Counted from the stretch's first letter, positions 6,994 to 60,075 are shown. The stretch: 64,000 nucleotides of DNA from Candidatus Omnitrophota bacterium (GCA_015233405.1 JADFXT010000007.1:64390-128389), one strand, 5' to 3'. Numbers and translations: made by a program. Notes: a model not told the origin generated them from the letters alone.

Positions 6994-7584
6994 ATGAAAG
7001 AAATTGTTGTCGCGACAAAGAATGAAGGCAAGCTGAGGGAAATCAAAAATCTCCTCGAGGATCTGGGTTTTAAAGTCACGAGCTTAAAAGATTATCCGCA
7101 TGCCCCGGAAATCGTTGAAGATGGAAAAACTTTTGCGCAAAATGCTATAAAAAAGGCCGTCACGATCGCCTTTTATACGAAGAAGCTTGTGATGGGAGAA
7201 GATTCCGGTATTGAAATCAAGGCGCTTAATAATCGCCCCGGAATTTATTCCGCACGTTATTCCGGCGCAGATGCTACCGATGAAAAGAACAACAGGAAAT
7301 TGTTGCGGGAGCTTAAAGGTGTGCCGCTTACTCGTCGCCAGGCCCGTTACCGCTGTTTTATCGCCCTGGTTGACCCTAACGGATTTTTAAAAGTCGTTTG
7401 TGGAAGTTGCCCCGGGCTTATCGCCACGCGCCCGTCGGGGAAGAATGGATTTGGTTATGATCCCTTATTTATTATTCCGCGTTACAAAAAAACCTTCGGC
7501 GAGATTGACCCTGCCATTAAAGCCAAGATCAGCCATCGGGCCAAGGCTTTAGAAAAAGTTAAAAAAGTCCTTCAAGAATATTGA
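6994..7584 (+). CDS. rdgB: dITP/XTP pyrophosphatase (RdgB/HAM1 family)
   Basis: 'IVVATKNEGKLREI', 'EDSGIEI..LNNRPGIYSARY' and 'GFGYDPLF'. Confidence 0.85.
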   Translation: MKEIVVATKNEGKLREIKNLLEDLGFKVTSLKDYPHAPEIVEDGKTFAQNAIKKAVTIAFYTKKLVMGEDSGIEIKALNNRPGIYSARYSGADATDEKNNRKLLRELKGVPLTRRQARYRCFIALVDPNGFLKVVCGSCPGLIATRPSGKNGFGYDPLFIIPRYKKTFGEIDPAIKAKISHRAKALEKVKKVLQEY

Positions 7585-10500
7585 TCCCGCTTTTAATCAC
7601 ATCCTTAACCGCCCCGGTTGTGTTCTCGAGGATCTTAACCGGCAAGGGCTGCACTTTGTAGCTCATTTTATCCAGCGTGCCTGTCACTTTGACGACAAAG
7701 CTTTGTTCGATGAGGGTTCGCGTGTCAATGTTGACTAAGGGCGCTTCGACCGCCGGGACCTGGGCATAGCGTGGCGTAATATCAAAATTAACGTTCTTTG
7801 CAAAATCCACCCAACCTTTGGCCTTAAGGTCAATGGCATTGCTTTTAATGACGGCATTCTCCGTCGTGAATTTTGCATTGCTAATGACAAAGTCGGCGTG
7901 AGCGGCGTTAAAGATGGTGTTTCTCAGCTGAGGAATGATCTGCCCAAAATTCCCGTCGCTAATATCCATGCTGGCCGTGCCTTTGATCTTACGTTGTTCA
8001 AGGAGAGGCCCATTAGCGTCCAGATTAAACGCAAAAATCCCGGCGAGCGATGGGACCGGCGTTTTGATCTTTTTTTGCAGGACCGCCAGGTCTAATTTCT
8101 GAACCGCCGCAGATAGTTTCATGGGCAGATTATCTTCTGTTAAATCGACCGATGAGGTAATGTTAAGTGTCCCGTCGTAAATGGTCGATGCAATATTGAA
8201 ATTGCTGATATTCTGGTCTCTTTCTACCAAATTAATCGTGAAGTCGTGGAAGGTATGGCCCAAAAGAGAAACCTCGGGGGAGGTTCCTTTAAATGTCAGA
8301 TTCCAATTGCGCCAGTCTTTGGGTTTTCCCTGAAACAAAAAATCATTGAGCGTGATGGTCCCGAGCGGTTTGAATTCATAAATCTGTTTTCTAAACGGCT
8401 CGGGGAGGATGGCTCGTAAGTCCATCAGATTCACGGCGAGCGTTCCTCTGAGGTCAAGATCAGGTTCACTATTATCGAAAAGATGGACGTCTCCCATGAT
8501 ATCAAAAGTCGAATTTAAATAGCTCCCTTTGAGCTTACAGATCTGGAACGCTTTGTGTAAAATATTGATTTGGGTTGAAACGCGAAGGTCCGTTGATGCG
8601 ATTGTGGATATGACAACAGGGCGGGAGAAATTGGCTATTTGCCCGGTGAATGTGTAGTGTTTTCCTAGGAATTCACCTTGAAGGTTTTTCCAGATCAAAA
8701 GATTATTGGTGTATTCAAGCTGCCCGGAAACATTGGAAATTCTCGACGGAAGTTTGGGGGAGTTGATGGCCACATGATTGATCTGGGAAAGGACATGGGT
8801 TTCTGCGTGCCCAGATGTTTTGGCCAGGCCTTTAAAATGCGCTTTCACTGTCGCGATGCCTTGCACATCGCATCCGATTTTTTTGGTATATTCAGGAAAA
8901 ATCTTGCTGACTTCTTCAAGCGCGATTGCGCTGGTTTTAAGCGTCATATCCACAAATGGATCATTGAAATTTTCTACGGACCCAAAGGACTCGACGGAAA
9001 TATTATGCGTGTTAAACGTCAGCCGTTTGGTCTCGATATGGTTATTATCAAAAATGAAATCTCCGTTTATTGCGTTGATGGCCGCAATCTTAGGTAAACC
9101 GCTGGCGCTGGCATTGACCAAAGAGATGGTCCCGGAATATTGAGCCTTGCCCGACGCGTCAGATTGATAGACAAGGTTCAGTTGAGGGTTACCTTCAAAT
9201 TTTTGTTTTCCGGTGACCAATAAGGCATTATGGATGGCCGTGTTGGTCCGTAGGGTCATGGCGCCTAGCCCTAAAGCCAGAGTTGTGTTCGACGAGGAAA
9301 TGTCTCCTTGAAAAGTTGAATCCTTGTTGAGCGCTATGACCGTGTTCTTGAGTTCAAAGTCAGTTTGTAAATCGAGCTTATTGTTTTTAAAGGAAGCGTT
9401 GGTGTTGACGGTCGAAAGATTTCCTTTGAGCCCTTGGGTTTCATTGAGCTTTAATAAGGCATTGTCGATTCTCAAATTTCCGGATAATTGAACATCCTGG
9501 TTTTGCGCAAGGAGCGTAATGTTGTTTGCCGTGATGTTTCCTTGAAGTTTCTGACCAGCCGATGTGTCTATGAGCGCATGGGCAAGCGCTAGGTTGACTT
9601 GGAGCGAAATAGTTTTTGTGGCGTCGGATATTTTCAAGGATTGGATCTGGGCGGAAAGTTCTCCTGAGGCATTGGTGTTGGCGTTTAAAATAACAGAAAC
9701 AGGCTTTGCCAGAATATCCGCCCGGGCATTGAGATTTTTATTTTTTAAGACAAAGACGAGGTTAGAAATGCTGACGGGGCCGTTAATGATGATATCTTTG
9801 CGCAGCTGTATCCGCGAAGACGTTTGGGACTGGCTATTTTCTAAAGAGAAATTTCCTTTCACAAGAAGGTTATTTTTAGCGGAAATCAGCTCTTGAATAT
9901 CTAGCATAAGGTTGCCTTGCAGATTTGTCTCGTCGGAAATCGAGATATCAGCCGCATCGGCAAGAACTAAACCTTTGGCGTCAATTCTTCCGTGGTCGAT
10001 ATTTAAGAACAACGGGTCGGCTTTTATATTCCCTTTGAGTTTTTGATGGTCGCTGATTTGAAGATCGGTCTCGTTTGAAGATAAATTTCCCTGTAGCCTT
10101 AGGCGGTTTCTTTTAAGGGCAAGGTTAATTCCTGAAGAGGAAAGGATCCCGCTTTTAAAATTCATCGGAAGATGGATGTCTGCCAATGAGAGATATTCGA
10201 CCAAGGTAATGTTGTGAAACGCAGAGAGGGCCGTTAAGGATTTCTGTAAAAGATCATAAATGCCTTTGGACTCGAACGAGGCTTGCTGCGACGGGATATT
10301 GACTTTGAACGTATAACTGATCTTGTCCAAAATAGAAAGGACCGCTAAAAGGTCAATATTCTCGAATGATTCTTGCCAAACAGTTTCTTTGGTTTCATCT
10401 GTGAGCTGAATTTTTCCGTTTTGTATGGAAATTTTTCTGACCAGAACACTAAAAGGGCTTCGAGTTTTAGGCGACGATTTTTGATTGGATTTCTCGAGAA

Positions 10501-10876
10501 TGTCAGAGAAGTTCCATTCGCCCGGCGCTGTTTTTTTGATATAGAGCGTTGGGTTCACGATGGAGATAGAAGAAATGATGATTTGTTTATTTAAGAATAT
10601 TGCCGGAACAAGAATGGTTAACGAGACGTTGTCTGCTGAAACAAAAAGTTCTTTGGGCGAGTCTTTCTGGTAAATGCGGATGTTGTCCGCACCTAATCCT
10701 TTTGGGATTTGAAATTGCAGCTTTCCGATCTCGACCGGGCGGTCAATGGCTATAGAGATCTGCTTCTCGATGATTCCTTTGATTTTTCCGGCGAGAAAGA
10801 CTTTGTTGACATAAAAGAAAGCAGCAATGCTTAAGAGACAAAGGACTAAAAATAAGAGAATAATATTTCGTTTCAT
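7559..10876 (-). CDS. Giant AsmA/TamB-like envelope protein
   Basis: 1105 aa with a single N-terminal TM. The N-terminus resembles AsmA/DUF748 family starts. The rest is long, repetitive and beta-rich ('L.GN' periodicity). The 3' end overlaps rdgB convergently by 26 nt. Confidence 0.5.
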   Translation of the reverse strand: MKRNIILLFLVLCLLSIAAFFYVNKVFLAGKIKGIIEKQISIAIDRPVEIGKLQFQIPKGLGADNIRIYQKDSPKELFVSADNVSLTILVPAIFLNKQIIISSISIVNPTLYIKKTAPGEWNFSDILEKSNQKSSPKTRSPFSVLVRKISIQNGKIQLTDETKETVWQESFENIDLLAVLSILDKISYTFKVNIPSQQASFESKGIYDLLQKSLTALSAFHNITLVEYLSLADIHLPMNFKSGILSSSGINLALKRNRLRLQGNLSSNETDLQISDHQKLKGNIKADPLFLNIDHGRIDAKGLVLADAADISISDETNLQGNLMLDIQELISAKNNLLVKGNFSLENSQSQTSSRIQLRKDIIINGPVSISNLVFVLKNKNLNARADILAKPVSVILNANTNASGELSAQIQSLKISDATKTISLQVNLALAHALIDTSAGQKLQGNITANNITLLAQNQDVQLSGNLRIDNALLKLNETQGLKGNLSTVNTNASFKNNKLDLQTDFELKNTVIALNKDSTFQGDISSSNTTLALGLGAMTLRTNTAIHNALLVTGKQKFEGNPQLNLVYQSDASGKAQYSGTISLVNASASGLPKIAAINAINGDFIFDNNHIETKRLTFNTHNISVESFGSVENFNDPFVDMTLKTSAIALEEVSKIFPEYTKKIGCDVQGIATVKAHFKGLAKTSGHAETHVLSQINHVAINSPKLPSRISNVSGQLEYTNNLLIWKNLQGEFLGKHYTFTGQIANFSRPVVISTIASTDLRVSTQINILHKAFQICKLKGSYLNSTFDIMGDVHLFDNSEPDLDLRGTLAVNLMDLRAILPEPFRKQIYEFKPLGTITLNDFLFQGKPKDWRNWNLTFKGTSPEVSLLGHTFHDFTINLVERDQNISNFNIASTIYDGTLNITSSVDLTEDNLPMKLSAAVQKLDLAVLQKKIKTPVPSLAGIFAFNLDANGPLLEQRKIKGTASMDISDGNFGQIIPQLRNTIFNAAHADFVISNAKFTTENAVIKSNAIDLKAKGWVDFAKNVNFDITPRYAQVPAVEAPLVNIDTRTLIEQSFVVKVTGTLDKMSYKVQPLPVKILENTTGAVKDVIKSGINILEGLF

Positions 10877-10912
10877 GAGAAATCATTATGGTTGACGATG
10901 AAAAAAGCCTTT

Positions 10913-11170
10913 TAATCCCAAATTTTGCATTACAATCAATAACGCGACGATTAGGCGCGTATAAAAAGATGCAATGCAAAATTTGCCTTCGGCCTGGGAT
11001 TACCCAGCTCTCCTCAAAACAATGGAAGAAGCTGGTGTATGCCGATTCTTTTGAATATTCTTAAAGGAAATCGGCGAACCCCGCACGTCTCGGCGAGGCC
11101 GAGACATTGCGGCCCTTTGGGCGTATTTTGCTTTGGCCTGCCAGGCGGCAGGCTAATGCAAAATCCGGGT
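10913..11170. mobile_element. MITE-like structured element with ~20-nt imperfect terminal inverted repeats
   Basis: Left end is 'AATCCCAAATTTTGCATTAC'. Right end 'CTAATGCAAAATCCGGGTT' is its near reverse complement. There is an internal third 'ATGCAAAAT' copy. Several GC-rich hairpins sit inside (GTCTCGGC-gag-GCCGAGAC; GCCTGCC-aggc-GGCAGGC). Confidence 0.35.
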
Positions 11171-11294
11171 TAAAGTGGAACCATTATAACAGAAAAAGAA
11201 AAAAGCCATGGAAAAAAGAAAGATTCTTCGGCGATGGGAGATTTTAGAAAATAAAAAAGGGAAGATTTTAAAGCATATTTCCTCCAGTTTGTTC

Positions 11295-11323
11295 CTTGAC
11301 CCTCCAGAGGTCTCATGTTATAT
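11295..11323 (+). promoter_or_regulatory. Sigma70-type promoter for tRNA-Pro
   Basis: 'TTGACC' - 17 nt - 'TATATT', about 28 nt upstream of the tRNA 5' end. Confidence 0.5.
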
Positions 11324-11351
11324 TAGTCTACTTTTTAATCGAGATTTTAAT

Positions 11352-11428
11352 CGGGGAGTGGCGCAGCTGGCTAGCGCACGTGCTTTGGGAGCATGGGGTC
11401 GTGGGTTCGAATCCCTCCTCCCCGACCA
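11352..11428 (+). tRNA. tRNA-Pro (anticodon TGG), CCA encoded
   Basis: Manual cloverleaf: CGGGGAG/CTCCCCG acceptor, GCGC D-stem, anticodon loop TTTGGGA, T-loop TTCGAAT (one T:T mismatch in the T-stem). Confidence 0.9.
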
Positions 11429-11469
11429 AGTTAACAAAATGATGTTCCATATTTATTAAGAAAATAGCA

Positions 11470-11542
11470 TTCTGTTGACGGGATAAATCGGCCCCGCACT
11501 TGTTTTTCTAAAAAAAGTAATGGAAACAAGTACAGGTGCCGC
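11470..11542 (+). repeat. Partial 5' duplicate of the tRNA-Arg leader and acceptor strand, folded as a hairpin
   Basis: 'GGATAAATCGGCCCCGCA' (11481-11498) mirrors the true 'GGTAAATCGGCCCCGTA' (11565-11581). It is followed by ACTTGTTT..AAACAAGT and GGTGCC, which pair back to it. Confidence 0.5.
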
Positions 11543-11572
11543 TTCTTTCTGGAAAAGATTTAGTGGTAAATC

Positions 11573-11646
11573 GGCCCCGTAGCTCAGTTGGATAGAGCAA
11601 CAGCCTTCTAAGCTGTGGGTCGCCCGTTCGACTCGGGCCGGGGTCG
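11573..11646 (+). tRNA. tRNA-Arg (anticodon TCT), CCA not encoded
   Basis: Manual cloverleaf: GGCCCCG/CGGGGTC acceptor, GCTC/GAGC D-stem, ACAGC-CTTCTAA-GCTGT anticodon arm, GCCCG-TTCGACT-CGGGC T-arm. Confidence 0.9.
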
Positions 11647-11714
11647 TTTTTTCGTTTTCTCGCCCTGAGATGGGGTAGTGCTCAGGGTCGTTTTTTCGTT
11701 TTCTCGCCCTGAGA
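11641..11714 (+). terminator. Intrinsic terminator embedded in a perfect 30-nt direct repeat
   Basis: 'GGGTCGTTTTTTCGTTTTCTCGCCCTGAGA' occurs at 11641-11670 and 11685-11714. The CCCTGAG/CTCAGGG hairpin is followed by a T-run. The first copy includes the last 6 nt of tRNA-Arg. Confidence 0.6.
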
Positions 11715-11759
11715 AAGCGATTATTCTTTGGGTTTCTAACCATTGTCATTTAAAGAGTC

Positions 11760-12746
11760 ATGAAGCTATTTCAAAAAATTCTCCTTGGTATTTTTGTTTT
11801 TTTTCTCTTTCTTTTTCTTGCAGTCTCTGTTTATCTTCGCTTTCAAGGCCAGCAAGTCATTATCAAAACGCTTACCCAATCTTTAAAACAAGATGTCAAA
11901 ATTCGCAGCCTCGCCTATAGTTTTCCTTTTGGGCTTAAGGCTAGCGATGTGTCGGTGGGTGATTTTTTTAATTGTCAGACGATCAAAGCTCAAATAAATT
12001 TGCTGGCACCTTTTAACGGACAAATTCATCTCGCCTATGTTTTTATAGACCGGCCTTTTCTGCGGGTTGATAAACAACAAGTGTCTATTCGTTCAATGAA
12101 AAATTTCTCGACGCAAACGGCAACAGAAGCAAATCCGGTCCAGCGCATTGAAAAGCAAAAAGAACCTTCATCCGTACAAAATTTTTTTCCGGCTGTTTCT
12201 ATCAATTGGCTTTTTATCCGGCAGGGAACCGTGGAGTATAGGGATAAGGACGACTCGCGATCGACGCTGTGGCTTGATAAAGTGGATTTAAGGGTTAAAT
12301 CGTTTGAGCTACCTTTGGAGTCCAACAAGGTTCCCTATACGTTTTCCGCAATGTTTCTAAAGGAGAAATCATTTTTTTCGAATACCAAGATTGAGAGCGC
12401 GGGATGGATCGATGTCGTGAAGAAAGACATGGACAGCAAGGTCAAGGTGATCGATTCAACGGGAAAGATTGGGCTCAATGCGCATTTGGTTTCCAAAGAT
12501 GATCAGATGAATGTTCAAGGCGATGTGTCGGCGGGGAAATTTTTGTTAGGATTGCAAAATGCAGGACAGGGGCCGACATCTTCTTTAGGAGGGTTGGTTG
12601 CCGGGGCGTTATCTAATTTTGGCGTCGAGGTTTTAGCAAAATTTTCTTTTGCGACCCGGATGGATGATTTTGAGATCCGAAATATCAATTTAGAAGGAAC
12701 GATCAAAACGCAAGAATCCGGCGTCAAATCGCTCCAAAAGAAATGA
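11760..12746 (+). CDS. Membrane-anchored hypothetical protein, AsmA/DUF748-like N-terminus
   Basis: N-terminal TM, then 'VIIKTLTQSLKQDVKIRSLAYSFPFGLKASDV', similar in pattern to the N-terminus of the 1105-aa protein. No other recognisable motif. Confidence 0.3.
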   Translation: MKLFQKILLGIFVFFLFLFLAVSVYLRFQGQQVIIKTLTQSLKQDVKIRSLAYSFPFGLKASDVSVGDFFNCQTIKAQINLLAPFNGQIHLAYVFIDRPFLRVDKQQVSIRSMKNFSTQTATEANPVQRIEKQKEPSSVQNFFPAVSINWLFIRQGTVEYRDKDDSRSTLWLDKVDLRVKSFELPLESNKVPYTFSAMFLKEKSFFSNTKIESAGWIDVVKKDMDSKVKVIDSTGKIGLNAHLVSKDDQMNVQGDVSAGKFLLGLQNAGQGPTSSLGGLVAGALSNFGVEVLAKFSFATRMDDFEIRNINLEGTIKTQESGVKSLQKK

Positions 12747-12837
12747 TTGTCGAAATGCGGTTTTATGATAAAATACGTTCCACTTGAAATTTGGTAATTT
12801 GATTTTTGGGCGATTCTGATGCTTTGGTCTTGACGGT

Positions 12838-13095
12838 CTCTGGAAAACATTTTAGTGGTAACATGGTGGGTGTGCTTAGAAACAAAAGCAGCACTACCTA
12901 CCATTTCTTTCTAGGAAATATTAAGTGGTAACATGGTGGGTGCCCATGACTTCTCTGGGAAAGGCTTCAAAGGAAGTCAGGACAACCGCACCATTTTTTT
13001 CTGGAAAAGATTTAGTGGTAACATGGTGGGTGTCCTTAAGGGCAAAAGCAGGACTACCAACCAGGTCTTTCTGGAAAATATTTTAGTGGTAACAT
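12838..13095 (+). repeat. Array of three promoter-box plus tRNA-His-5'-strand units, each forming its own hairpin
   Basis: The identical 19-mer 'AGTGGTAACATGGTGGGTG' occurs at 12854, 12924, 13014 and 13085; the fourth copy runs into the real tRNA. Hairpins at 12865-12902, 12935-12992 and 13025-13062. Confidence 0.8.
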
Positions 13096-13170
13096 GGTGG
13101 GTGTAGCTCAGTTGGTTAGAGTACAAGAATGTGGCTCTTGTGGTCGCGGGTTCGAATCCCGTCACCCACC
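13096..13170 (+). tRNA. tRNA-His (anticodon GTG) with genomically encoded G-1
   Basis: G-1 opposite C73. GTGGGTG/CACCCAC acceptor, CAAGA-ATGTGGC-TCTTG anticodon arm, GCGGG-TTCGAAT-CCCGT T-arm. No CCA encoded. Confidence 0.9.
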
Positions 13171-13176
13171 CTTTAT

Positions 13177-13221
13177 AACCCTTTGTAAGGTTTAATAATC
13201 CTTGCAAGGGGTTTTGTTTTT
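13177..13221 (+). terminator. Hairpin plus T-run downstream of tRNA-His
   Basis: AACCCTTTGTAAGG - TTTAATAAT - CCTTGCAAGGGGTT, followed by TTTTGTTTTT. Confidence 0.6.
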
Positions 13222-13222
13222 A

Positions 13223-13250
13223 TTGACAAATTTTCGGTTCATGTTATATT
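13223..13250 (+). promoter_or_regulatory. Promoter of brnT/brnA module 1
   Basis: 'TTGACA' - 16 nt - 'TATATT'. The ATG lies only ~12 nt after the -10 (near-leaderless). Confidence 0.55.
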
Positions 13251-13262
13251 TACATTGTACAT

Positions 13263-13553
13263 ATGAATGAAATTCATTTTGAATGGGATAAGCTGAAGGC
13301 GGCGGCCAATAAAAGGAAGCATGGTGTTTCTTTTGAAGAGGCGCAGACTGTCTTTTATGATGACAATGCCGTTCAATTTGATGACCCGGACCATTCAAAG
13401 AGCGAGGATAGATTTATTATGGTGGGCATGAGTTATAAATTACGGGTGCTGGTGGTTTCTCATTGTGAGAGGCATGAAGATGTTATTAGGATTATTTCAG
13501 CCAGAAAAGCTATCCGTCATGAGACGAAATATTATACGGAGGGGAAAATATGA
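13263..13553 (+). CDS. brnT: BrnT-family (DUF497) type II toxin, copy 1
   Basis: 'FEWDKLKAAANKRKHGVSFEEAQTVF', 'HSKSEDRF' and 'IRIISARKA' are BrnT hallmarks. Confidence 0.8.
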   Translation: MNEIHFEWDKLKAAANKRKHGVSFEEAQTVFYDDNAVQFDDPDHSKSEDRFIMVGMSYKLRVLVVSHCERHEDVIRIISARKAIRHETKYYTEGKI

Positions 13554-13765
13554 GAGCAGAATATGATTTTTCTAAAATGAAGGGACGGCGTAATCCTTAT
13601 GCGTCACGCTTAAAAAAACCGGTGACCATTCGTTTGGGTTCGGATGTTGTGGCGTATTTTAAGAATATGGCTTCCGAGATGGATGTCCCGTATCAGAAAC
13701 TGATGAACATGTATCTAAGGGATTGCGTTTCGTCTCATCGTAAAGTCGAATGGGTTTCGCACTAA
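13550..13765 (+). CDS. brnA: BrnA-family antitoxin (RHH/CopG-like), copy 1
   Basis: 'YDFSKMKGRRNPYASRLKKPVTIRL..DVVAYFK..A.EMDVPYQKLMNMYLRD'. 4-nt ATGA overlap with brnT. Confidence 0.8.
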   Translation: MRAEYDFSKMKGRRNPYASRLKKPVTIRLGSDVVAYFKNMASEMDVPYQKLMNMYLRDCVSSHRKVEWVSH

Positions 13766-13779
13766 ACAGGGTTCTCACG

Positions 13780-13851
13780 TTTTTCTGGAGAAAATTCATA
13801 GGTAACGGGACCCCGCCAAAGGCGGTGGTAACCTTGCTCCACCCAACGACC
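13780..13851 (+). repeat. tRNA-type upstream box, then GC hairpin, then an 18-mer resembling the tRNA-His 3' strand
   Basis: 'TTTTTCTGGAGAAAATTCATAGGTAAC' is related to the box upstream of tRNA-Arg and tRNA-His. CCGCC-aaa-GGCGG hairpin. 'TTGCTCCACCCAACGACC' (13834-13851) is identical to 15481-15498. Confidence 0.6.
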
Positions 13852-13910
13852 TTTAATTAGGACGTGCTTTTAGGATAATGCAACCAGTAGAACCTCGTTT
13901 TTTTGCTTAT

Positions 13911-14714
13911 ATGAAAAAAATATTTTTGCTTTTCTTGGTTTTTATTTTTTTGTCCGAATGCTCTTATGCGGACATTGCACTGGTGCATTCTAGCTATAAG
14001 CATACAATGAGCATTACTTCAGGATCGCCTGTCACTAGTTACTTGACGACGATAGCTACCATAGACAGCGGGTCAAATCAGATGCTGGTCGTCGGGGTTT
14101 CGGCGGAAATCGCGAGGACAACTGGTACCATTACTTTCGGGACTGTTTCTTATAATGGAACTCTGATGACGCAGGTAACCACTGCATCTGTGGTCGCAAC
14201 GGGAAACGGAAGTGTTGACGGAGTGGCCCTTTACTATTTGCAAAATCCCGCTGTGGGGACAAATAATTATGTGGCCTCGACTGTTTCGGCCAGTACCGGT
14301 ATTGGAACAATTAATTCGCACAAGATCCTTGCCATAAGTTTGAGTGGGGTAAACCAAGCAGCCCCTGAAGCCAATAATTCAGCGACCAACAATAGCGCGT
14401 CTGCAAGCGTGAATTTGACCACTTTAACAAATAATGCGTGGGTCCTGGATATTGTATGCGAAGATTTATCCACCGCCACATGGACTGCCGGTGGGGGGCA
14501 GTCACCCGTGCTTGATATTGGGGGCAATCAGATGAGGGCGGCCATGTCGTATAAGCCTGTGGCTACAGCCGGAGCCACGACGATGTCTTGGGCTATATCG
14601 GGTTCTTATGGATGGGCCATTATTGCCGCTTCTTTTGCTCCTTTTGTTGCGGCGTCAAACGCATCGGTCTCCGGAGCCACATCAATGACGGGAATAACGT
14701 CGATAAGTTTTTAA
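13911..14714 (+). CDS. Hypothetical secreted protein, Thr/Ser/Ala/Gly-rich
   Basis: Signal peptide 'MKKIFLLFLVFIFLSECSYA'. No recognisable motif. The sequence looks more GC-rich than its flanks. An alternative upstream start at 13878 lacks a signal peptide. Confidence 0.5.
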   Translation: MKKIFLLFLVFIFLSECSYADIALVHSSYKHTMSITSGSPVTSYLTTIATIDSGSNQMLVVGVSAEIARTTGTITFGTVSYNGTLMTQVTTASVVATGNGSVDGVALYYLQNPAVGTNNYVASTVSASTGIGTINSHKILAISLSGVNQAAPEANNSATNNSASASVNLTTLTNNAWVLDIVCEDLSTATWTAGGGQSPVLDIGGNQMRAAMSYKPVATAGATTMSWAISGSYGWAIIAASFAPFVAASNASVSGATSMTGITSISF

Positions 14715-14744
14715 TGGAATGGTGTTTGATATTGTTAAACCGGT

Positions 14745-14790
14745 CTGCCTGCCGGACAGGCAGGTTCGAACCCTCTTCCTCCAGCGACCC
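14745..14790 (+). repeat. GC hairpin plus tRNA T-loop/3'-end-like sequence
   Basis: 'CTGCCTGCCGGACAGGCAG' hairpin, then 'GGTTCGAACCCTCTTCCTCCAGCGACCC'. The downstream sequence is homologous to that following tRNA-His. Confidence 0.5.
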
Positions 14791-14798
14791 TTGTTTAA

Positions 14799-14843
14799 TA
14801 GCCTTTTATAAGGTTTAACAATCTTATAAAAGGCTATCTTTTT
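14799..14843 (+). terminator. Hairpin plus T-run, homologous to the one after tRNA-His
   Basis: TAGCCTTTTATAAG - GTTTAACAAT - CTTATAAAAGGCTA, followed by TCTTTTT. The loop is conserved with 13191-13199 and the stem differs but still pairs. Confidence 0.6.
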
Positions 14844-14845
14844 GG

Positions 14846-14875
14846 TTGACAGATGTATATCTTGGTGATATACAT
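14846..14875 (+). promoter_or_regulatory. Promoter and palindromic operator of brnT/brnA module 2
   Basis: 'TTGACA' - 17 nt - 'TATACA'. A perfect inverted repeat ATGTATATC-ttggt-GATATACAT (14853-14875) overlaps the spacer and -10. Confidence 0.6.
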
Positions 14876-14882
14876 ATATCGT

Positions 14883-15197
14883 ATGGATATTCAGCAGATC
14901 CTCAATAGTTGCGAAGGCTTTCAATGGGACGGTGGTAATAGCCTCAAAAGTTGGCTTAAGCATCATGTTTCACAAGGAGAGGCAGAGCAGATATTCTTTA
15001 ATGACCCGCTTTTATTAGTCATGGATCCGAGGCATTCGCAGGATGAGGCGAGGTATTGGGCGTTAGGGTATACGGATGACGACAGACAGCTGTTCATTGT
15101 TTTTACGATACGTAAGAATTTGATTCGAGTTATTTCAGCTAGGAATATGAATAGGAAAGAAAAGGTGGATTATGAAAAATTTAAAACCAATTCCTAA
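14883..15197 (+). CDS. brnT: BrnT-family (DUF497) type II toxin, copy 2
   Basis: 'FQWDGGNSLKSWLKHHVSQGEAEQIF', 'HSQDEARY' and 'IRVISARNM'. The start was moved to the ATG at 14883 because the listed start at 14853 lies inside the promoter. Confidence 0.75.
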   Translation: MDIQQILNSCEGFQWDGGNSLKSWLKHHVSQGEAEQIFFNDPLLLVMDPRHSQDEARYWALGYTDDDRQLFIVFTIRKNLIRVISARNMNRKEKVDYEKFKTNS

Positions 15198-15447
15198 ATT
15201 TAAAAGTGAAAGTGATGAACGGAAATTCTGGACGACCCATGATTCGACAGAATATGTCGATTGGTCTAAGGCCAGGAAAGCCGTCTTCCCGAATTTGAAG
15301 CCGACCTGCAGGAGTATTTCATTAAGGATTCCTATGGCTATGTTGGATAAGCTTCGGGTTCTGGCCAATAAGCGGGATGTGCCGTACCAATCGCTATTAA
15401 AGACGTTTTTGGCTGACCGTTTGAAGAAGGAGTCGGTTTCTCATTAA
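15172..15447 (+). CDS. brnA: BrnA-family antitoxin, long form, copy 2
   Basis: 'IPKFKSESDERKFWTTHDSTEYVDW...FPNLKP...ISLRIP..MLDKLRVLANKRDVPYQSLLKTFL'. Confidence 0.75.
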   Translation: MKNLKPIPKFKSESDERKFWTTHDSTEYVDWSKARKAVFPNLKPTCRSISLRIPMAMLDKLRVLANKRDVPYQSLLKTFLADRLKKESVSH

Positions 15448-15452
15448 ACGGG

Positions 15453-15498
15453 CCTGCCTGCCGGACAGGCAGGTTCTAACTTGCTCCACCCAACGACC
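15453..15498 (+). repeat. GC hairpin plus a degenerate tRNA-His 3'-end-like sequence (right boundary of module 2)
   Basis: 'CCTGCCTGCCGGACAGGCAGG', then 'GGTTCTAAC' and 'TTGCTCCACCCAACGACC'. Compare the tRNA-His 3' end, 'GGTTCGAATCCCGTCACCCACC'. Confidence 0.55.
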
Positions 15499-15577
15499 CC
15501 ATTTTTTCCACAACTATTTTCCTTAATGTAAGATGGTGATCATGGCGTCGAAGATGGGGAAAGTATAATTGTTTGTT

Positions 15578-16081
15578 ATGCAAAAGAAATCCTTAAATAA
15601 TTTAGTAAGCTTAAAACAACTCTTTAAAAACGGAGTTGTTTTTTTATTTCTTGGATTGCTGGTTTCGACTGCTGCCGGCTGCGGAAGTTTAAAAGTTAAT
15701 ACACCGTCGCAGAAAACGACAGAAGTCCCACCAATCGAAGTCCATGAACTGGCAAGGTCGCTACTGAGTTGGGATGGCACATCTCTCCCTGCGTATCCCA
15801 CAGGACATCCGGAAATTACGATTTTACGTATTGTTATCCCGCCGGGTGCGGCTTTAGCGAAGCACAAGCATCCGGTCATTAATGCGGGCGTATTATTGAA
15901 AGGTGAGTTGACGGTCCAGACTGAAAACGGTAAGATACTTCATCTGAAGGCTGGGGACGCCCTTGTGGAAGTGGTGGACACCTGGCATTACGGGAAAAAT
16001 GAAGGCGCAGTTCCGGCCGAGATCATTGTCTTTTACGCCGGGACGGAAGGCGCGCCGATCACGGTTCATAAATCGGAATAA
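15578..16081 (+). CDS. Cupin-domain lipoprotein
   Basis: Lipobox 'TAAGC'. 'HKHPVINAGVLLKGELTV...LKAGDALVEVVDTWHYGKN' is a cupin_2 pattern. The ATG at 15578 is preferred over the TTG at 15569. Confidence 0.6.
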   Translation: MQKKSLNNLVSLKQLFKNGVVFLFLGLLVSTAAGCGSLKVNTPSQKTTEVPPIEVHELARSLLSWDGTSLPAYPTGHPEITILRIVIPPGAALAKHKHPVINAGVLLKGELTVQTENGKILHLKAGDALVEVVDTWHYGKNEGAVPAEIIVFYAGTEGAPITVHKSE

Positions 16082-16095
16082 TCAAAGGAGAGGTC

Positions 16096-17046
16096 ATGTT
16101 CAGAGAAAAAATCAAGGTGCTGGATTGTACAATTCGCGACGGCGGACTTATCAATAATCATCAATTTGATATCCGGTTCGTCCGGGAAGTCTATAAAGCG
16201 CTGTCCGAGGCTGGCGTGGATTATATGGAGATCGGCTATAAGAATTCCAAGAAGATGTTCTCCGCCCAGGAATATGGGTTGTGGAAATTTTGCGACGACG
16301 AAGATATTCACAAAGTCATTGATGGCATAGAGTCCAAGACAAAACTCTCCGTTATGATCGATGTGGATCGCGTGGCCCTAGAGGACATCAAGCCGCGTAA
16401 GCAAAGCCCTGTGAGCATGATCCGCACCGCTTGTTATGTCAAGGACGTGGACAAGGCGATCCACCTTGCCAATCATTGCGCGGAAAAAGGGTATGAGACG
16501 GCGGTCAATCTTATGGCCATCTCGCGGGCTTTGGACAATGAATTGACCGAGTGCCTGCATCAGTTGGAATCAGAGTGCAAATGCCAGGTTGTTTATATCG
16601 TCGACAGTAACGGTGCTCTTTATCAGGAAACAACGGAATTCCTCGTCAAGAAAGCCAAAGACATCGTCAAGTCCAAGGAGATCGGCATCCACGCGCATAA
16701 TAATCAGCAGCTGGCTTTCGGTAATTCCATTGAAGCCATCATCCACCACGCCAATTATGTCGACGCGACGGTCTACGGTCTTGGCCGTGCCGCGGGGAAC
16801 TGTCCGCTGGAATTGATGCTGGGATTCTTAAAAAATCCGAAATATGATATCCGGCCGATCCTTGACCTCATTTCCAAGGAATTCCTCTCGCTGCGGGAAA
16901 AGATGGAGTGGGGCTATATTATTCCTTACGCCATCGCCGGTATGCTCGACGAGCATCCGCGCGCTTCCATCGCGCTAAGGGAAAGCGATAAAAAGGACGA
17001 CTATCGGGAATTTTATGAAAGCCTCGTCGGAGAAGTCGAGGAGTAA
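16096..17046 (+). CDS. HMGL-like (pyruvate carboxyltransferase-domain) aldolase family protein
   Basis: 'VLDCTIRDGGLINNHQF', 'IGIHAHNNQQLAFGNSIEAI' and 'VDATVYGLGRAAGNCPLE' match the DRE-TIM metallolyase pattern. Confidence 0.65.
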   Translation: MFREKIKVLDCTIRDGGLINNHQFDIRFVREVYKALSEAGVDYMEIGYKNSKKMFSAQEYGLWKFCDDEDIHKVIDGIESKTKLSVMIDVDRVALEDIKPRKQSPVSMIRTACYVKDVDKAIHLANHCAEKGYETAVNLMAISRALDNELTECLHQLESECKCQVVYIVDSNGALYQETTEFLVKKAKDIVKSKEIGIHAHNNQQLAFGNSIEAIIHHANYVDATVYGLGRAAGNCPLELMLGFLKNPKYDIRPILDLISKEFLSLREKMEWGYIIPYAIAGMLDEHPRASIALRESDKKDDYREFYESLVGEVEE

Positions 17047-17057
17047 TAAAGTTTTTT

Positions 17058-17216
17058 TGTCATCCCCGAATGTTTAAGCCTGCCTGACGGTAGGCAGGTC
17101 GGGGAACCACAAAACAGAGTTGTCATTCCCGCGAAGGCGGGAATCCAGTAACGTTTTTAGATTCTGGATCCCCAATCATTTCTGGATATAAAATCGAGGA
17201 AGTTGAGGATGACAAG
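17058..17216. repeat. Palindromic dispersed repeat, locus 4 (composite)
   Basis: 'TGTCATCCCCGAA..GCCTGCCTGACGGTAGGCAGG..TCGGGGAACC', 'TGTCATTCCCGCGAAGGCGGGAATCCAG' (17121-17148), and a degenerate 'CTGGATCCCC...GAGGATGACAAG'. Confidence 0.8.
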
Positions 17217-17278
17217 CATATTAAAGATTTCGGAAATGACAGGTAAACATTCGTGTTGCCTGAATTGTGAGAGTATAA

Positions 17279-17926
17279 GTGGATATTAAGCAATTCCAAC
17301 AACTGCCGATCTTAGGCATCCTGCGCGGCATCGAAGAAAGCCATGTAGAGCCTTTGGTCGCCATAATTGAATCCGCCGGATTAAAAACCATTGAAATCAC
17401 CATGAATACCAAAGGCGCGCCGGCTTTGATCCGAAAAGCTGTTGCCATTTCTAAGGGCCGCTTGACTATTGGCGCTGGCACGGTGTTGGATATGGCAAGC
17501 CTACATGCGGCACTCGACGCTGGTGCGACTTTTATCGTCATGCCGGTCTTGGTTCCGGACGTCATGGCGTATTGCGTGAAACATAATATTCGTACATTTC
17601 CCGGCGCGTTTAGTCCGCAAGAAATCTTCACGGCCTGGCGCGCGGGTGCCACCATGGTCAAGGTCTTCCCGACGTCAGCCTTAAGCCCGGAATATTTTAG
17701 CGAGATCAAAGGGCCATTTGCCGACATAAAACTTTTGGCCTGCGGTGGCGTCACAGCCCAAAACATGAAATCTTATTTTGCCCACGGCGCAGATGCCGTC
17801 AGTTTCGGCGCCAGCGTGTTTAAGAAAGAATGGCTCGCTAAAAAAGATTTTTCCAGTATCGGTCTATCGATCAAGGAATTTCTCCAAGAATTCAGTCTAC
17901 TTAAAACGGGTTTTCCTAAAAAGTGA
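17279..17926 (+). CDS. eda: KDPG/KHG aldolase
   Basis: 'LPILGILRG', 'IEITMNT.GA', 'IGAGTVLD', 'GATFIVMP', 'FPGAFSPQEI' and 'GATMVKVFP'. GTG start. Confidence 0.8.
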   Translation: MDIKQFQQLPILGILRGIEESHVEPLVAIIESAGLKTIEITMNTKGAPALIRKAVAISKGRLTIGAGTVLDMASLHAALDAGATFIVMPVLVPDVMAYCVKHNIRTFPGAFSPQEIFTAWRAGATMVKVFPTSALSPEYFSEIKGPFADIKLLACGGVTAQNMKSYFAHGADAVSFGASVFKKEWLAKKDFSSIGLSIKEFLQEFSLLKTGFPKK

Positions 17927-17934
17927 GAATCTTC

Positions 17935-18849
17935 ATGAAGTTTCTATTGTTGATGGCCGTCTTTATTCTGTCGACGAGAATTGCCCGTGCCGAATTTAAA
18001 GTTATCGATCCTGCAGAATTTAACAAGATTGCTGACCCCGGTTCTTCGATCGAAACGATCGGGACCGGTTTCCTTTTTACCGAAGGCCCCGTCTGGATAA
18101 AAAGTGAGAATAGGCTTTTGTTTAGCGATATTGACCAGGAAAAAATATTTTCGTGGAGCAAAGAAAAAGGTGTCTCTGTTTATCGGGAAGAAAGTAACGG
18201 CGCTAACGGAAACTTTTTAGACAAGCAAGGCCGCCTTATCACCGCTGAACATCAATCGAGACAGTTAACATACGCAGATCCCGACGGCACCGTGAATGTG
18301 TTAGTCGGCACTTATGAAGGCAAAAGGTTTAATTCTCCCAATGACTTAACTGTTTCTTCGGACGGGAGCATTTGGTTTACAGACCCGGATTATGGGCTTC
18401 GAGGCCGAAAGAAAGAGTTATCAGGAAATTTTGTTTTTAAGCTGGATACGGCGGGAACTTTGGCCGTTGCCATAACAGAACTTTCAAAACCCAACGGTCT
18501 TTGTTTTTCACCGGATGAACAATATCTTTATGTCGCGGATTCCGACGGCAAGAATCACAATATTCATCGATACGCCATAAAGAACGGTTTGCTTTCTCCG
18601 GGAGAAGTGTTCTGCGTCATCGACAATAAAATCCCCGATGGTATCCGCTGTGACAACAAAGGCCGTCTTTATGTGGCCGCGGGTGACGGCATCCAGATAT
18701 TTTCCCCGGCAGGAAAATTGATAGGAAAAATTCTGACGGATTCGTGGCCGACCAATTTATGTTTTGGCGGGGAAGATGGACAAACCCTTTTTATCACCGC
18801 ACGGCAATCTGTTTATGCGATTCATTTAAAAGTTAAAGGAAACCAATAA
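17935..18849 (+). CDS. SMP-30/gluconolactonase/LRE-family protein, secreted
   Basis: Signal peptide, 'FTEGPVW', 'LLFSDI', 'NGNFLDKQGRLITAEH', 'NSPNDL' and 'IWFTDP'. An alternative GTG start at 17923 is possible. Confidence 0.75.
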   Translation: MKFLLLMAVFILSTRIARAEFKVIDPAEFNKIADPGSSIETIGTGFLFTEGPVWIKSENRLLFSDIDQEKIFSWSKEKGVSVYREESNGANGNFLDKQGRLITAEHQSRQLTYADPDGTVNVLVGTYEGKRFNSPNDLTVSSDGSIWFTDPDYGLRGRKKELSGNFVFKLDTAGTLAVAITELSKPNGLCFSPDEQYLYVADSDGKNHNIHRYAIKNGLLSPGEVFCVIDNKIPDGIRCDNKGRLYVAAGDGIQIFSPAGKLIGKILTDSWPTNLCFGGEDGQTLFITARQSVYAIHLKVKGNQ

Positions 18850-18888
18850 CTGTAATATTTTCCTTCTGTCGGTAAAAGATCCTCATCT

Positions 18889-19560
18889 ATGTTTGATCAC
18901 GCTCATATTTTTGTTATCAAAGAGAAAAAAGATATCAAAGCGGCTTTGATAAAGTTGACCGAGCTTCAAGGTTTTGAGCTGGTTACGTTGACGGCTGAGC
19001 AGAGTGTGTGGTTAAATAAAATCCATCATCCTCCGGACTCGTGGCTTTGGTTCAATCTTCCTGATACCCCTTGGAAAATGTATCGCGTCGGCGAGAAAGC
19101 GGACTTAGCCTACGTCGTTCCTTTACATCATGAGGCATTTATTGACAGCGATTTTCATGACGAGGCGGTTGCTTTATCGCGGGAATTAAATACGACTTTA
19201 TTTTACCTATGGGAAGAACATGCGACGGATGGTTTTGGAAAATATCAAAACGGCGTCAGAGAAAAAAACATCGCAGAGGATACTCATGGGCCGGGAACAG
19301 AAATTGATGGCAAAAAAGTAGCCTATTCTCCGGATCTTCTTAAAAAAACGTTAGAACAAGAAAAACTAACGGATATAGAGAAGCATTTTGAACAAGTCCA
19401 GGCAGGGATCTTATTTTTTCTTAAAAAAGGGCACTCGCAAGATTTGGACAGAATGATCAAGCACGCTGAGGAGCAGTGGCGGAAAAACACAATAAGTTTC
19501 TTTATAAAATTTGCAGTTTTCTTGGTGATTATTATTTTATTAATAAGAAGCTGTTCGTGA
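18889..19560 (+). CDS. Hypothetical protein with C-terminal membrane anchor
   Basis: ORF with no recognisable motif. The C-terminal 'FFIKFAVFLVIIILLI' looks like a TM segment. Confidence 0.4.
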   Translation: MFDHAHIFVIKEKKDIKAALIKLTELQGFELVTLTAEQSVWLNKIHHPPDSWLWFNLPDTPWKMYRVGEKADLAYVVPLHHEAFIDSDFHDEAVALSRELNTTLFYLWEEHATDGFGKYQNGVREKNIAEDTHGPGTEIDGKKVAYSPDLLKKTLEQEKLTDIEKHFEQVQAGILFFLKKGHSQDLDRMIKHAEEQWRKNTISFFIKFAVFLVIIILLIRSCS

Positions 19561-59977: not shown

Positions 59978-60075
59978 GCATGAAGGTCGAATCGAAACGG
60001 CAAACTACTCGTAAGGGTAGGGCGCAAAGTTAGAGGGTCCTAAAGGAATAGGATAGCCTGACTACCGAAGTCGCG
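59978..60075 (+). promoter_or_regulatory. c-di-GMP-I (GEMM-I) riboswitch aptamer
   Basis: 'GGCAAAC-TACTC-GTAA-GGGTA-GGGCGCAAAG....AGCCTGACTACCGAAG' matches the GEMM-I conserved core: GGCAAA, a GNRA-capped P1b, (G/A)CGCAAAG, and AGCC..ACCGAA. Confidence 0.8.

Follow-up and report, generated by a model that had tools for sequence, protein, structure and literature searches.

Hairpin units carrying leader and acceptor-stem sequence precede tRNA-Arg, tRNA-His and tRNA-Phe genes in an Omnitrophota lineage

We wondered why a bacterial tRNA-His gene should be preceded by three partial copies of its own 5' end. The gene lies in a stretch of 64,000 nucleotides from a Candidatus Omnitrophota bacterium (GCA_015233405.1, JADFXT010000007.1:64390-128389; hereafter the window). 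A preliminary description of the array, made without database searches, had proposed that its units mimic the acceptor stem of tRNA-His and might act as decoys or regulators of histidyl-tRNA synthetase (HisRS) or RNase P; its alternatives were a new family of small RNAs driven by a tRNA promoter, or fossils of serial recombination. We found that each unit is a hairpin module composed of the leader and the 5' acceptor strand of the tRNA that it precedes, followed by a T-rich tail, and that modules of the same design stand ahead of other tRNA genes. The anatomy of the module is solid, and so is the finding that it recurs in no fewer than three genomes and at three species of tRNA. What the modules do is a separate question, for which we weigh several answers below.

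Three hairpin units carry the 5' end of tRNA-His

The 19-mer AGTGGTAACATGGTGGGTG occurs in four perfect copies, at 12854, 12924, 13014 and 13085, at spacings of 70, 90 and 71 nt, exactly as first noticed. Shuffled sequences gave an expectation of 0.01 matches, and none of 100 shuffles contained four or more copies. Only the fourth copy runs into a real tRNA-His gene with an encoded G-1, which pairs with C73 (13170). ARAGORN and Rfam both placed this gene at 13097-13170 and called it as the sole tRNA-His. Units 1 to 3 were called as tRNAs by neither ARAGORN nor the Rfam model RF00005, and no Rfam match to them appeared even at E-values up to 10. Tandem Repeats Finder missed the array because its copies differ by insertions and deletions.

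The three units repeat, in diverged form, the upstream box and the initial 8-9 bases of tRNA-His, and in each of them G-1 and the acceptor 5' strand pair with a complementary strand of the unit's own. Behind every hairpin, here and at the loci described below, a T-rich tail lies on the strand of the tRNA. The hairpins of units 1 and 2 were clearly more stable than shuffled sequences (-18.8 kcal/mol, z -4.5, for 12863-12904; -27.2 kcal/mol, z -3.2, for 12933-12994), and that of unit 3 was marginal (-15.3 kcal/mol, z only -1.3, for 13024-13063). Units 1 and 3 are homologous, with 85% identity over 72 nt, and they differ by one compensated pair, G12874:C12892 against C13034:G13052; both observations had been made before and are correct. 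Unit 2 is of the same type and carries an additional interior insertion of about 20 nt. The block around the 19-mer did not change at any of 23 positions between units 1 and 3, compared with 11 of 49 positions elsewhere (Fisher p = 0.013), and this invariant block ends where homology to the real tRNA-His gene ends. Such invariance would fit selection and gene conversion alike.

A longer box had been described around each copy of the 19-mer. Exact copies of this box, TTCTGGAAAAnATTTAGTGGTAA, were found only ahead of unit 3 (12999) and ahead of tRNA-Arg (11547). The box of unit 2 has three mismatches, the boxes of units 1 and 4 have a 1-nt insertion (ATTTTAGTGG), and the box of unit 1 begins TCTCTGG. 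A small hidden Markov model (HMM) of the box recovered all five copies in the window with E-values of at most 1e-5, and 24 of 24 nt in the region of box copy 3 are identical to 11546-11569, ahead of tRNA-Arg. The box indeed ends 3 nt before the mature 5' end of both tRNAs, counted to G-1 in tRNA-His (CAT, then G) and to G1 in tRNA-Arg (ATC, then G).

Several familiar element classes were considered and set aside. An ATG (in CATGG) opens each unit; the resulting open reading frame (ORF) of unit 1 has 22 codons and ends at the TAA of the next box, and that of unit 2 encodes 57 aa and extends into tRNA-His. As leader peptides these ORFs (12863-12931 and 12933-13106, plus strand) were judged spurious by eye, as they show neither a Shine-Dalgarno sequence nor a run of His codons. 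A CRISPR array was rejected on the grounds that the intervals are mutually homologous, as units 1 and 3 illustrate, and that what is repeated is the 5' flank of the tRNA itself; none of the neighbours checked showed a cas domain. When the region 10800-13700 was searched with the cis-regulatory RNA models of Rfam 15 (T-box, riboswitch, leader) at E-values up to 10, nothing but the three tRNA genes came to one third of the gathering score of its family.

The same module precedes tRNA-Arg and tRNA-Phe

In the window, tRNA-Arg has one upstream unit (Table 1). Its 5' part, AATCGGCCCCG at 11487-11497, is a copy of the leader and G1-G7; it is closed by a complementary strand, after which come the tail and the box. 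In another Omnitrophota metagenome-assembled genome (MAG; locus L022) an identical box stands ahead of tRNA-Phe, together with three units at a period of 58-59 nt. Each of these units runs from a box-like start through TATGCC (the leader and the start of tRNA-Phe), an inner stem-loop and the complement into a T-run. The Phe array was identical in an independent Joint Genome Institute (JGI) metagenome contig (L097), and 26 of 26 nt, comprising T-run and box, are common to window positions 12996-13021 and the region upstream of tRNA-Phe in both loci. At all three tRNA genes (His, Arg and Phe) each unit is built from the leader and the 5' acceptor strand of its own tRNA. The hairpin-module design is lineage-wide at tRNA leaders and is not confined to histidine.

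These loci came from pattern scans and from synteny. Of the 69 loci obtained by scanning species-representative genomes, almost all were chance matches and L022 alone was relevant; the metagenome scan found the L022 locus again as L097 and nothing else relevant. Syntenic loci were reached via homologues of RNase PH, and only two sets were informative: L106/L107 for Arg and L111, from Ca. Zapsychrus exili, for Pro, Arg and His. L106/L107 represents the closest relative, with an RNase PH that is 79% identical and coding DNA that is about 70% identical to the window; it has an orthologous Arg unit with a diverged box (TTTCTGGGAAATATTAAGATGTAATC). Ca. Zapsychrus exili keeps the order Pro-Arg-DUF748-His. 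A homologue search with the 328-aa neighbour protein found none on record, and one with the 1105-aa DUF748 protein gave only 25%-identical matches. Both L106 (end 15075) and L107 (end 7350), which are contigs of Logan assemblies, stop at the same base inside tRNA-Arg, which suggests a repeat-induced assembly break.

The genes that carry the box differ from tRNA-Pro. Box-type tRNA genes (Arg, His and Phe, the last at 652-724 of L022) do not encode CCA. A T-run directly follows the discriminator in Arg and Phe; tRNA-His instead has a separate hairpin terminator. In contrast, tRNA-Pro (window 11352-11428) encodes CCA and has a canonical sigma-70 promoter (TTGACC-17-TATATT/TATACT in the window and L106) and a leader of about 27 nt, which would imply that RNase P processing is in use. 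The tRNA-Pro gene is present in seven distinct loci, and in none of them does it have a box or units; in six of the seven, the window among them, it encodes CCA.

Table 1. Positions of the modules, boxes, tRNA genes and associated signals in the window
Feature	Position	Strand	Remarks
tRNA-Arg upstream unit	11489-11541	+	C-1 and G1-G7 paired with CAGGTGCCG; inner stem ACTTGTTT/AAACAAGT; tail CTTCTTTCT
Box of tRNA-Arg	11545-11572	+	TTTCTGGAAAAGATTTAGTGGTAA, then ATC
tRNA-Arg(TCT)	11573-11646	+	CCA not encoded; T-run right after discriminator
tRNA-Arg 3' end with T-run, two perfect 30-nt copies	11641-11670, 11685-11714	+	44 nt apart
Sigma-70-like promoter of His array	12747-12774	+	TTGTCG-16-TAAAAT with TG; right after DUF748 stop; about 60 nt before first box
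Box copy 1 (TCTCTGGAAAACATTTTAGTGGTAACAT)	12837-12864	+	TTGACG at 12830-12835, 17 nt upstream of TAGTGG
Unit 1 hairpin	12863-12904	+	Leader -3 to -1, G-1 and tRNA positions 1-11 paired with 12888-12904; 13-nt loop
Unit 1 T-rich tail (TTCTTTCT)	12905-12912	+	Continues into box copy 2
Box copy 2 (CTTTCTAGGAAATATTAAGTGGTAACA)	12907-12933	+	Most diverged of the box copies
Unit 2 hairpin, 62 nt	12933-12994	+	Outer stem is leader plus acceptor 5' strand
T-run after unit 2	12995-13002	+	T7 if 12994 is counted
Box copy 3	12998-13023	+	T-run and box stretch shared with Phe and Arg loci
Unit 3 hairpin	13024-13063	+	Homologue of unit 1; C13034:G13052 swap; G3-A mismatch; poor tail (GGTCTTTCT)
Box copy 4, tRNA-proximal	13067-13095	+	Ends in CAT, immediately before G-1
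tRNA-His(GTG)	13096-13170	+	Encoded G-1 (13096), C73 (13170); CCA not encoded
tRNA-His intrinsic terminator	13179-13221	+	Hairpin 13179-13211, then TTTTGTTTTT; positive control of the terminator score

Pairing is kept where the tRNA sequence is not

Comparison of the window with L106 allowed the conservation of the Arg unit to be set against that of its surroundings. Identity was 35% in the Pro-Arg spacer, 52% in the 5' strand and loop of the unit, and 76% in its 3' half together with T-run and box, the last of these not below the identity of coding DNA. In L106 the 5' strand no longer follows the tRNA (GGCCCCG has become GGCUUAU), a drift that is matched in the 3' strand. The pair C5:G of the window is U5:A in L106, with the stem still paired, and C6, which is unpaired in the window fold, is replaced by U5-G. 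Because the 5' strand left the tRNA sequence while the 3' strand followed, these changes suggest that the constraint on Arg units acts on pairing and not on tRNA identity.

Sigma-70-like promoters lie upstream of three of the four arrays

The box had initially been called tRNA-type, with a tRNA promoter as one possibility; it is not recognisable as a sigma-70 promoter. Such a promoter is expected to have -35 and -10 hexamers 16-18 nt apart, the second base of the -10 being A and the sixth T. Scans of the window, L022 and L106 called none of the boxes; the site at 12747-12774 and the tRNA-Pro promoter in the window were called. The sequence TAGTGG, at -12 to -7 of the box, has G at its position 6 and hence no T at -7. 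A -35-like element was seen in unit 1 only (TTGACG, 17 nt before TAGTGG) and in none of units 2-4, Arg or Phe. Inspection by eye for a sigma-70, extended -10, sigma-54 or sigma-32 promoter gave no consistent -35/-10 combination whose start would fall on the mature end or ahead of it.

Promoter-like sites were found instead further upstream, ahead of three of the four arrays; the scan called none for the Arg unit of the window. The Phe array of L022 is preceded by TTGACA-17-TAGAAT, with 11 of 12 matches, and the Arg array of L106 by TTGATA-17-TATTTT. For the His array, 12747-12774 is a candidate for the start of a long tRNA-His leader. In Ca. Zapsychrus, about 38 nt of leader separate TTGTTA-16-TAGAAT from tRNA-His, and this leader ends in the box-like GAAAAGATAAGCAGTACGAT before GG. 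This position inside a leader favours the view that the box would be a transcribed leader element. That view does not account for the 3-nt register (from G-1 in His) or for the 26-nt identity between species and between different tRNAs, which may reflect a promoter-like or processing role.

A phage or mobile-element end was rejected as an explanation of the box, for two scans of viral contigs gave chance matches only, none of them by a tRNA-like 5' end. Across 307 kb of Omnitrophota loci the box HMM found no copies beyond those it was trained on and one weak match. A weakly box-like sequence, TTTCTGGAGAAAATTCATAGGTAAC, lies at window 13782-13806 (plus strand, E 0.6), after the first BrnA gene, and is followed by a CCGCC/GGCGG hairpin and then by CTCCACCCAAC, which faintly resembles the 3' strands of the His units. 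This site could be a decayed module or a chance match.

Hairpin geometry and terminator strength vary among units

The proposal of a HisRS decoy drew on the G-1:C73 pair of tRNA-His. Minihelices and microhelices with this pair are reportedly substrates of HisRS, and small helices are said to serve as model substrates of RNase P. The His units resemble them in their G-1:C pair, present in all three, and in the roughly 11 bp after G-1 in units 1 and 3, against 12 bp in the stacked acceptor and T stems. Unlike such substrates, the units have a paired leader. The helix of every unit enters the leader by 1-4 bp; in the His units, where it goes 1-3 bp beyond G-1, this base would be internal and not at the helix end unless the RNA is processed. 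Helices of about 9 to 22 bp were seen across units, the upper value being that of unit 2, and acceptor position 3 forms a G-U pair in unit 1 and is unpaired in unit 3. None of the units has a T-loop-like loop, and CCA is not encoded in any of them. The paired leader, the variable helix length and the missing T-loop and CCA argue against the units as faithful mimics of the minihelices that HisRS, RNase P or the CCA-adding enzyme would accept. Common to the units are the hairpin, its U-rich tail and the box. For ArgRS and PheRS, acceptor minihelices are not known to be the main identity element or to be something that these enzymes depend on. Since the same design is present at Arg and Phe and the helix geometry is off, we rejected a His-specific decoy in the form first proposed; the 5' strand of the Arg unit has moreover drifted from the tRNA with pairing kept, and the box is no recognisable sigma-70 promoter, candidates for which lie further upstream. 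Whether the units are functional or neutral, this idea is not to be kept in its original form.

Hairpins with T-rich tails call to mind intrinsic terminators, and we scored them with a measure of the d'Aubenton-Carafa type, in which positive values predict a terminator. The controls scored +20.7 (terminator of tRNA-His), +12.5 (3' end of tRNA-Arg) and +12.1 (3' end of tRNA-Phe). His unit 2 reached +14.1, as the sole His unit above 0, and Phe unit 3 reached +6.1. His unit 1 was borderline at -8.8, followed by the Arg unit of L106 (-20), Phe units 1 and 2 (-29), and both His unit 3 and the Arg unit of the window (-53). The hairpin with its T-tail is universal among the units, terminator strength is not.

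Local duplications cluster at tRNA flanks

Local direct repeats of at least 18 nt within 200 nt form five families in the 64 kb, of which three lie at the flanks of tRNA-Arg and tRNA-His. The repeated 3' end of tRNA-Arg (Table 1) mirrors, on the 3' side, this tendency to local duplication; its second copy forms a terminator-like hairpin with CGCCCTGAG. In Ca. Zapsychrus exili about 60 nt of tRNA-Arg 3' end and trailer (L111, around 16470-16630) are repeated about 98 nt downstream. Given these repeats of tRNA ends at both tRNA-Arg genes and the concentration of repeats at the flanks, small tRNA-end duplications are habitual in these genomes. In a distant Omnitrophota relative (L102, 9520-9650, minus strand) the 3' end of tRNA-Pro, CTCCCCGAT, occurs again about 130 nt downstream, beside G+C-rich hairpins.

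It is plausible that the units arose as internally deleted copies of the gene. Compared with the body of tRNA-His over 1000 shuffles, the interiors of the three units were not significantly tRNA-like (p = 0.05, 0.87 and 0.98), so an origin by internal deletion is not demonstrable. Duplication of an attachment (att) site is an unlikely origin: Pfam scans of the ORFs in 13263-19560, 7559-10876 and 11760-12746 (the last two ranges being DUF748 genes) revealed no integrase, the 64 kb contain no second copy of the tRNA-His 3' end, and nothing is inserted between the copies. In an unrelated metagenome contig (L074, 3228-3275 and 3619-3705) a second copy of the promoter and 5' half of tRNA-Leu(TAA) stands 393 nt ahead of the complete gene, which looks like a classic att-type partial duplication. 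Just downstream of tRNA-His in the window lie two pairs of BrnT toxin and BrnA (CopG-type) antitoxin genes (13263-13765 and 14853-15447, plus strand), separated by an ORF of 278 aa with no family match.

Other features of the window and its relatives

A c-di-GMP-I riboswitch aptamer lies at window 59989-60069 (plus strand; 60.9 bits against an Rfam gathering score of 35). An ORF of 1176 aa at 19693-23223 (plus strand) combines CoaD (pantetheine-phosphate adenylyltransferase) and CoaE (dephospho-CoA kinase) in its C-terminal half; its N-terminal approximately 500 aa have no match. In Ca. Zapsychrus exili, L111 11483-11707 is a perfect 99-nt tandem repeat of 2.3 copies, intergenic and located after the RdgB/Ham1 gene.

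Discussion

How might such arrays arise, and what might they do? We tentatively read the modules as local duplications that may have been kept because they act in cis, as hairpins of the leader or as partial terminators, behind a sigma-70-like promoter, a reading to which we give somewhat less than an even chance. The units would then derive from a modular element that stands, in this Omnitrophota lineage, ahead of tRNA genes of one class (Arg, His and Phe). Each gene of this class is preceded by a conserved box of 23-26 nt ending 3 nt before the mature 5' end. A module begins with a T-rich run and the box; then come 3-4 nt of leader and 8-11 nt from the start of the tRNA, which the complementary strand closes into a hairpin, and the next T-rich run. 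It would have originated by local tandem duplication of the gene's 5' flank, after which slippage or unequal exchange between direct repeats of 30-56 nt could shift the copy number, and the 19-mer could owe its invariance to selection or to gene conversion involving the real gene. The array would be transcribed within a long 5' leader from the upstream sigma-70-type promoter. Modules of terminator grade (His unit 2 and Phe unit 3) might attenuate or insulate transcription that enters the tRNA, and the remaining modules might serve as structural or processing punctuation.

A number of observations weigh against this proposal. Only two of eight units passed the terminator score, His unit 3 and both Arg units failing clearly, and a stricter consensus terminator scanner called none of the units. 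Efficient termination at the hairpins would also block the supply of tRNA from the upstream promoters. A leader model leaves unexplained why the tRNA-proximal box is identical across genes and species and why its 3-nt register is fixed, and gene conversion without any function can account for the invariant 19-mer. Upstream units are absent at tRNA-Arg and tRNA-His of Ca. Zapsychrus, and the base for comparison is four arrays in three genomes, known from sequence only.

The main rival to this proposal is that the modules may be neutral relics, that is, decaying tandem duplications at tRNA flanks whose 5' block is homogenised by gene conversion with the live gene, and whose hairpin and T-run are functionless inheritances from the acceptor stem and terminator of the tRNA. 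We consider this somewhat unlikely, yet much speaks for it. Local direct repeats cluster at tRNA flanks on both the 5' and the 3' side, copy number varies from 1 to 3, and the units of L022 are recent and nearly identical. Unit 3 of the His array is degraded in its stability, its G-A mismatch and its tail, the limit of the 19-mer block is the limit of tRNA homology, as conversion tracts would give, and the 3' strands of the units retain a discriminator base and T-run as real genes do; the want of units in Ca. Zapsychrus points the same way. Against mere decay, the Arg unit outlasted divergence to about 70% coding identity, with its 3' half and box far better preserved than the spacer, and the changes that did occur include pair-preserving ones. 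The interiors, as noted, are not significantly tRNA-like.

A more active role would follow if the box were a tRNA promoter peculiar to this lineage, with its start site on the mature 5' end (G-1 in the case of His), making of each unit a self-terminating minigene for an acceptor-stem-like hairpin RNA of 40-60 nt. Such RNAs could act in trans, for instance as decoys or regulators of RNase P, the CCA-adding enzyme or a synthetase, which generalises the decoy idea beyond His. The fixed distance of 3 nt from box to mature end in Arg, His (from G-1) and Phe, where the mature end starts with G and position -1 is a pyrimidine, is what such a promoter might produce, and the same holds for the T-run and box shared without a mismatch by two MAGs at different tRNAs. 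TAGTGG (TAAGAT in L106), taken as a -10 element at -12 to -7, would put the start on the mature end, the TTGACG of unit 1 stands exactly 17 nt ahead of it, and a T-rich tail ends every unit. We nevertheless regard this as unlikely. TAGTGG is without the near-invariant T at -7, a -35 element is missing from units 2-4, Arg and Phe, and the promoter scan called no box. The upstream Phe units differ in the -10-like part (GATATTT), and the first unit of L106 is without it altogether. The box-like sequence of Zapsychrus sits within a leader, tRNA-Pro with its canonical promoter and leader of about 27 nt would imply that RNase P processing is used, and the hairpins are poor minihelix mimics. A fuller version, in which the box as a non-canonical promoter in mature-end register, the CCA-less tRNA and the T-run would form a dedicated expression cassette, and upstream minigenes would yield tRNA-specific acceptor-stem hairpin RNAs by which RNase P, the CCA-adding enzyme, synthetases or other enzymes that handle tRNA would be regulated or titrated, appears more doubtful still. 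Very improbable, finally, are scars of site-specific integration or excision (att remnants) at the tRNA gene, or an artefact of assembly. Partial tRNA duplications are frequent at integration sites, L074 offers a classic case, and BrnT/BrnA pairs lie just downstream of tRNA-His. Yet no integrase was found in the scanned ORFs and no second tRNA-His 3' end in 64 kb, and the copies stand 70-90 nt apart with nothing inserted between them, each closed into a hairpin. As for assembly, the units are mutually diverged, which does not fit a repeat-collapse artefact, and the Phe array is identical in two independent assemblies, as is likewise the case for the Arg unit of L106/L107.

The literature searched contained no description of such modules and nothing on how Omnitrophota process their tRNAs, and no Rfam family matched. 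The nearest precedents are intrinsic terminators and attenuators, att partial duplications and, reportedly, the distal repeats of Escherichia coli tyrT. The units resemble terminators and attenuators in that the transcribed strand has a hairpin with a U-rich tract placed after a promoter-like site and before a gene, and His unit 2 and Phe unit 3 score as the genome's own terminators do. They differ in that the stem is the downstream tRNA's leader and 5' acceptor strand, arranged in tandem with a conserved box, in that six of eight units fail the classical score, and in that no sensing mechanism is apparent. Integrase att duplications likewise consist of direct repeats of a terminal part of a tRNA beside the intact gene, for which L074 is a textbook-looking example. 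Here, however, the 5' end is repeated in place of the usual 3' part, at a spacing of 70-90 nt and with complementary strands of its own, and there is neither an inserted element nor an integrase in the scanned ORFs.

The tyrT repeats are said to be units of 178 bp, present about three times, each with the 3'-terminal approximately 19 nt of tRNA-Tyr; they are reportedly thought to be products of unequal exchange and to be involved in termination of the operon. Like our units they are tandem, flank a tRNA gene and each contain a short terminal piece of tRNA. Unlike them, they lie downstream, derive from the 3' end, do not form two-strand acceptor hairpins and are not common to several tRNA species. 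A fixed register has its own parallel in Nanoarchaeum equitans, where tRNAs are reportedly transcribed without leaders from promoters at a fixed distance. Both cases have an upstream motif in fixed register to the mature 5' end, with a 1-nt shift for tRNA-His that includes G-1. The present organism is in contrast a bacterium, its tRNA-Pro is equipped with promoter and leader of the ordinary kind, and its box matches no known promoter. Recognition of tRNA-His in N. equitans has been described (PMC10100707).

If the arrays are neutral, they would point to an unusually active, localised duplication process at tRNA flanks, relevant to the assembly of MAGs, as the breaks of L106/L107 in tRNA-Arg illustrate, and to pseudo-tRNA signals. 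If they are functional, they would represent an undescribed organisation of tRNA genes, in which a leader consists of repeated copies of the gene's own acceptor stem together with a conserved tRNA-specific box in fixed register to the mature 5' end. This would bear on whether some bacterial tRNAs are synthesised leaderless and on the control or insulation of tRNA output in Omnitrophota, whose members are known almost wholly from metagenomes.

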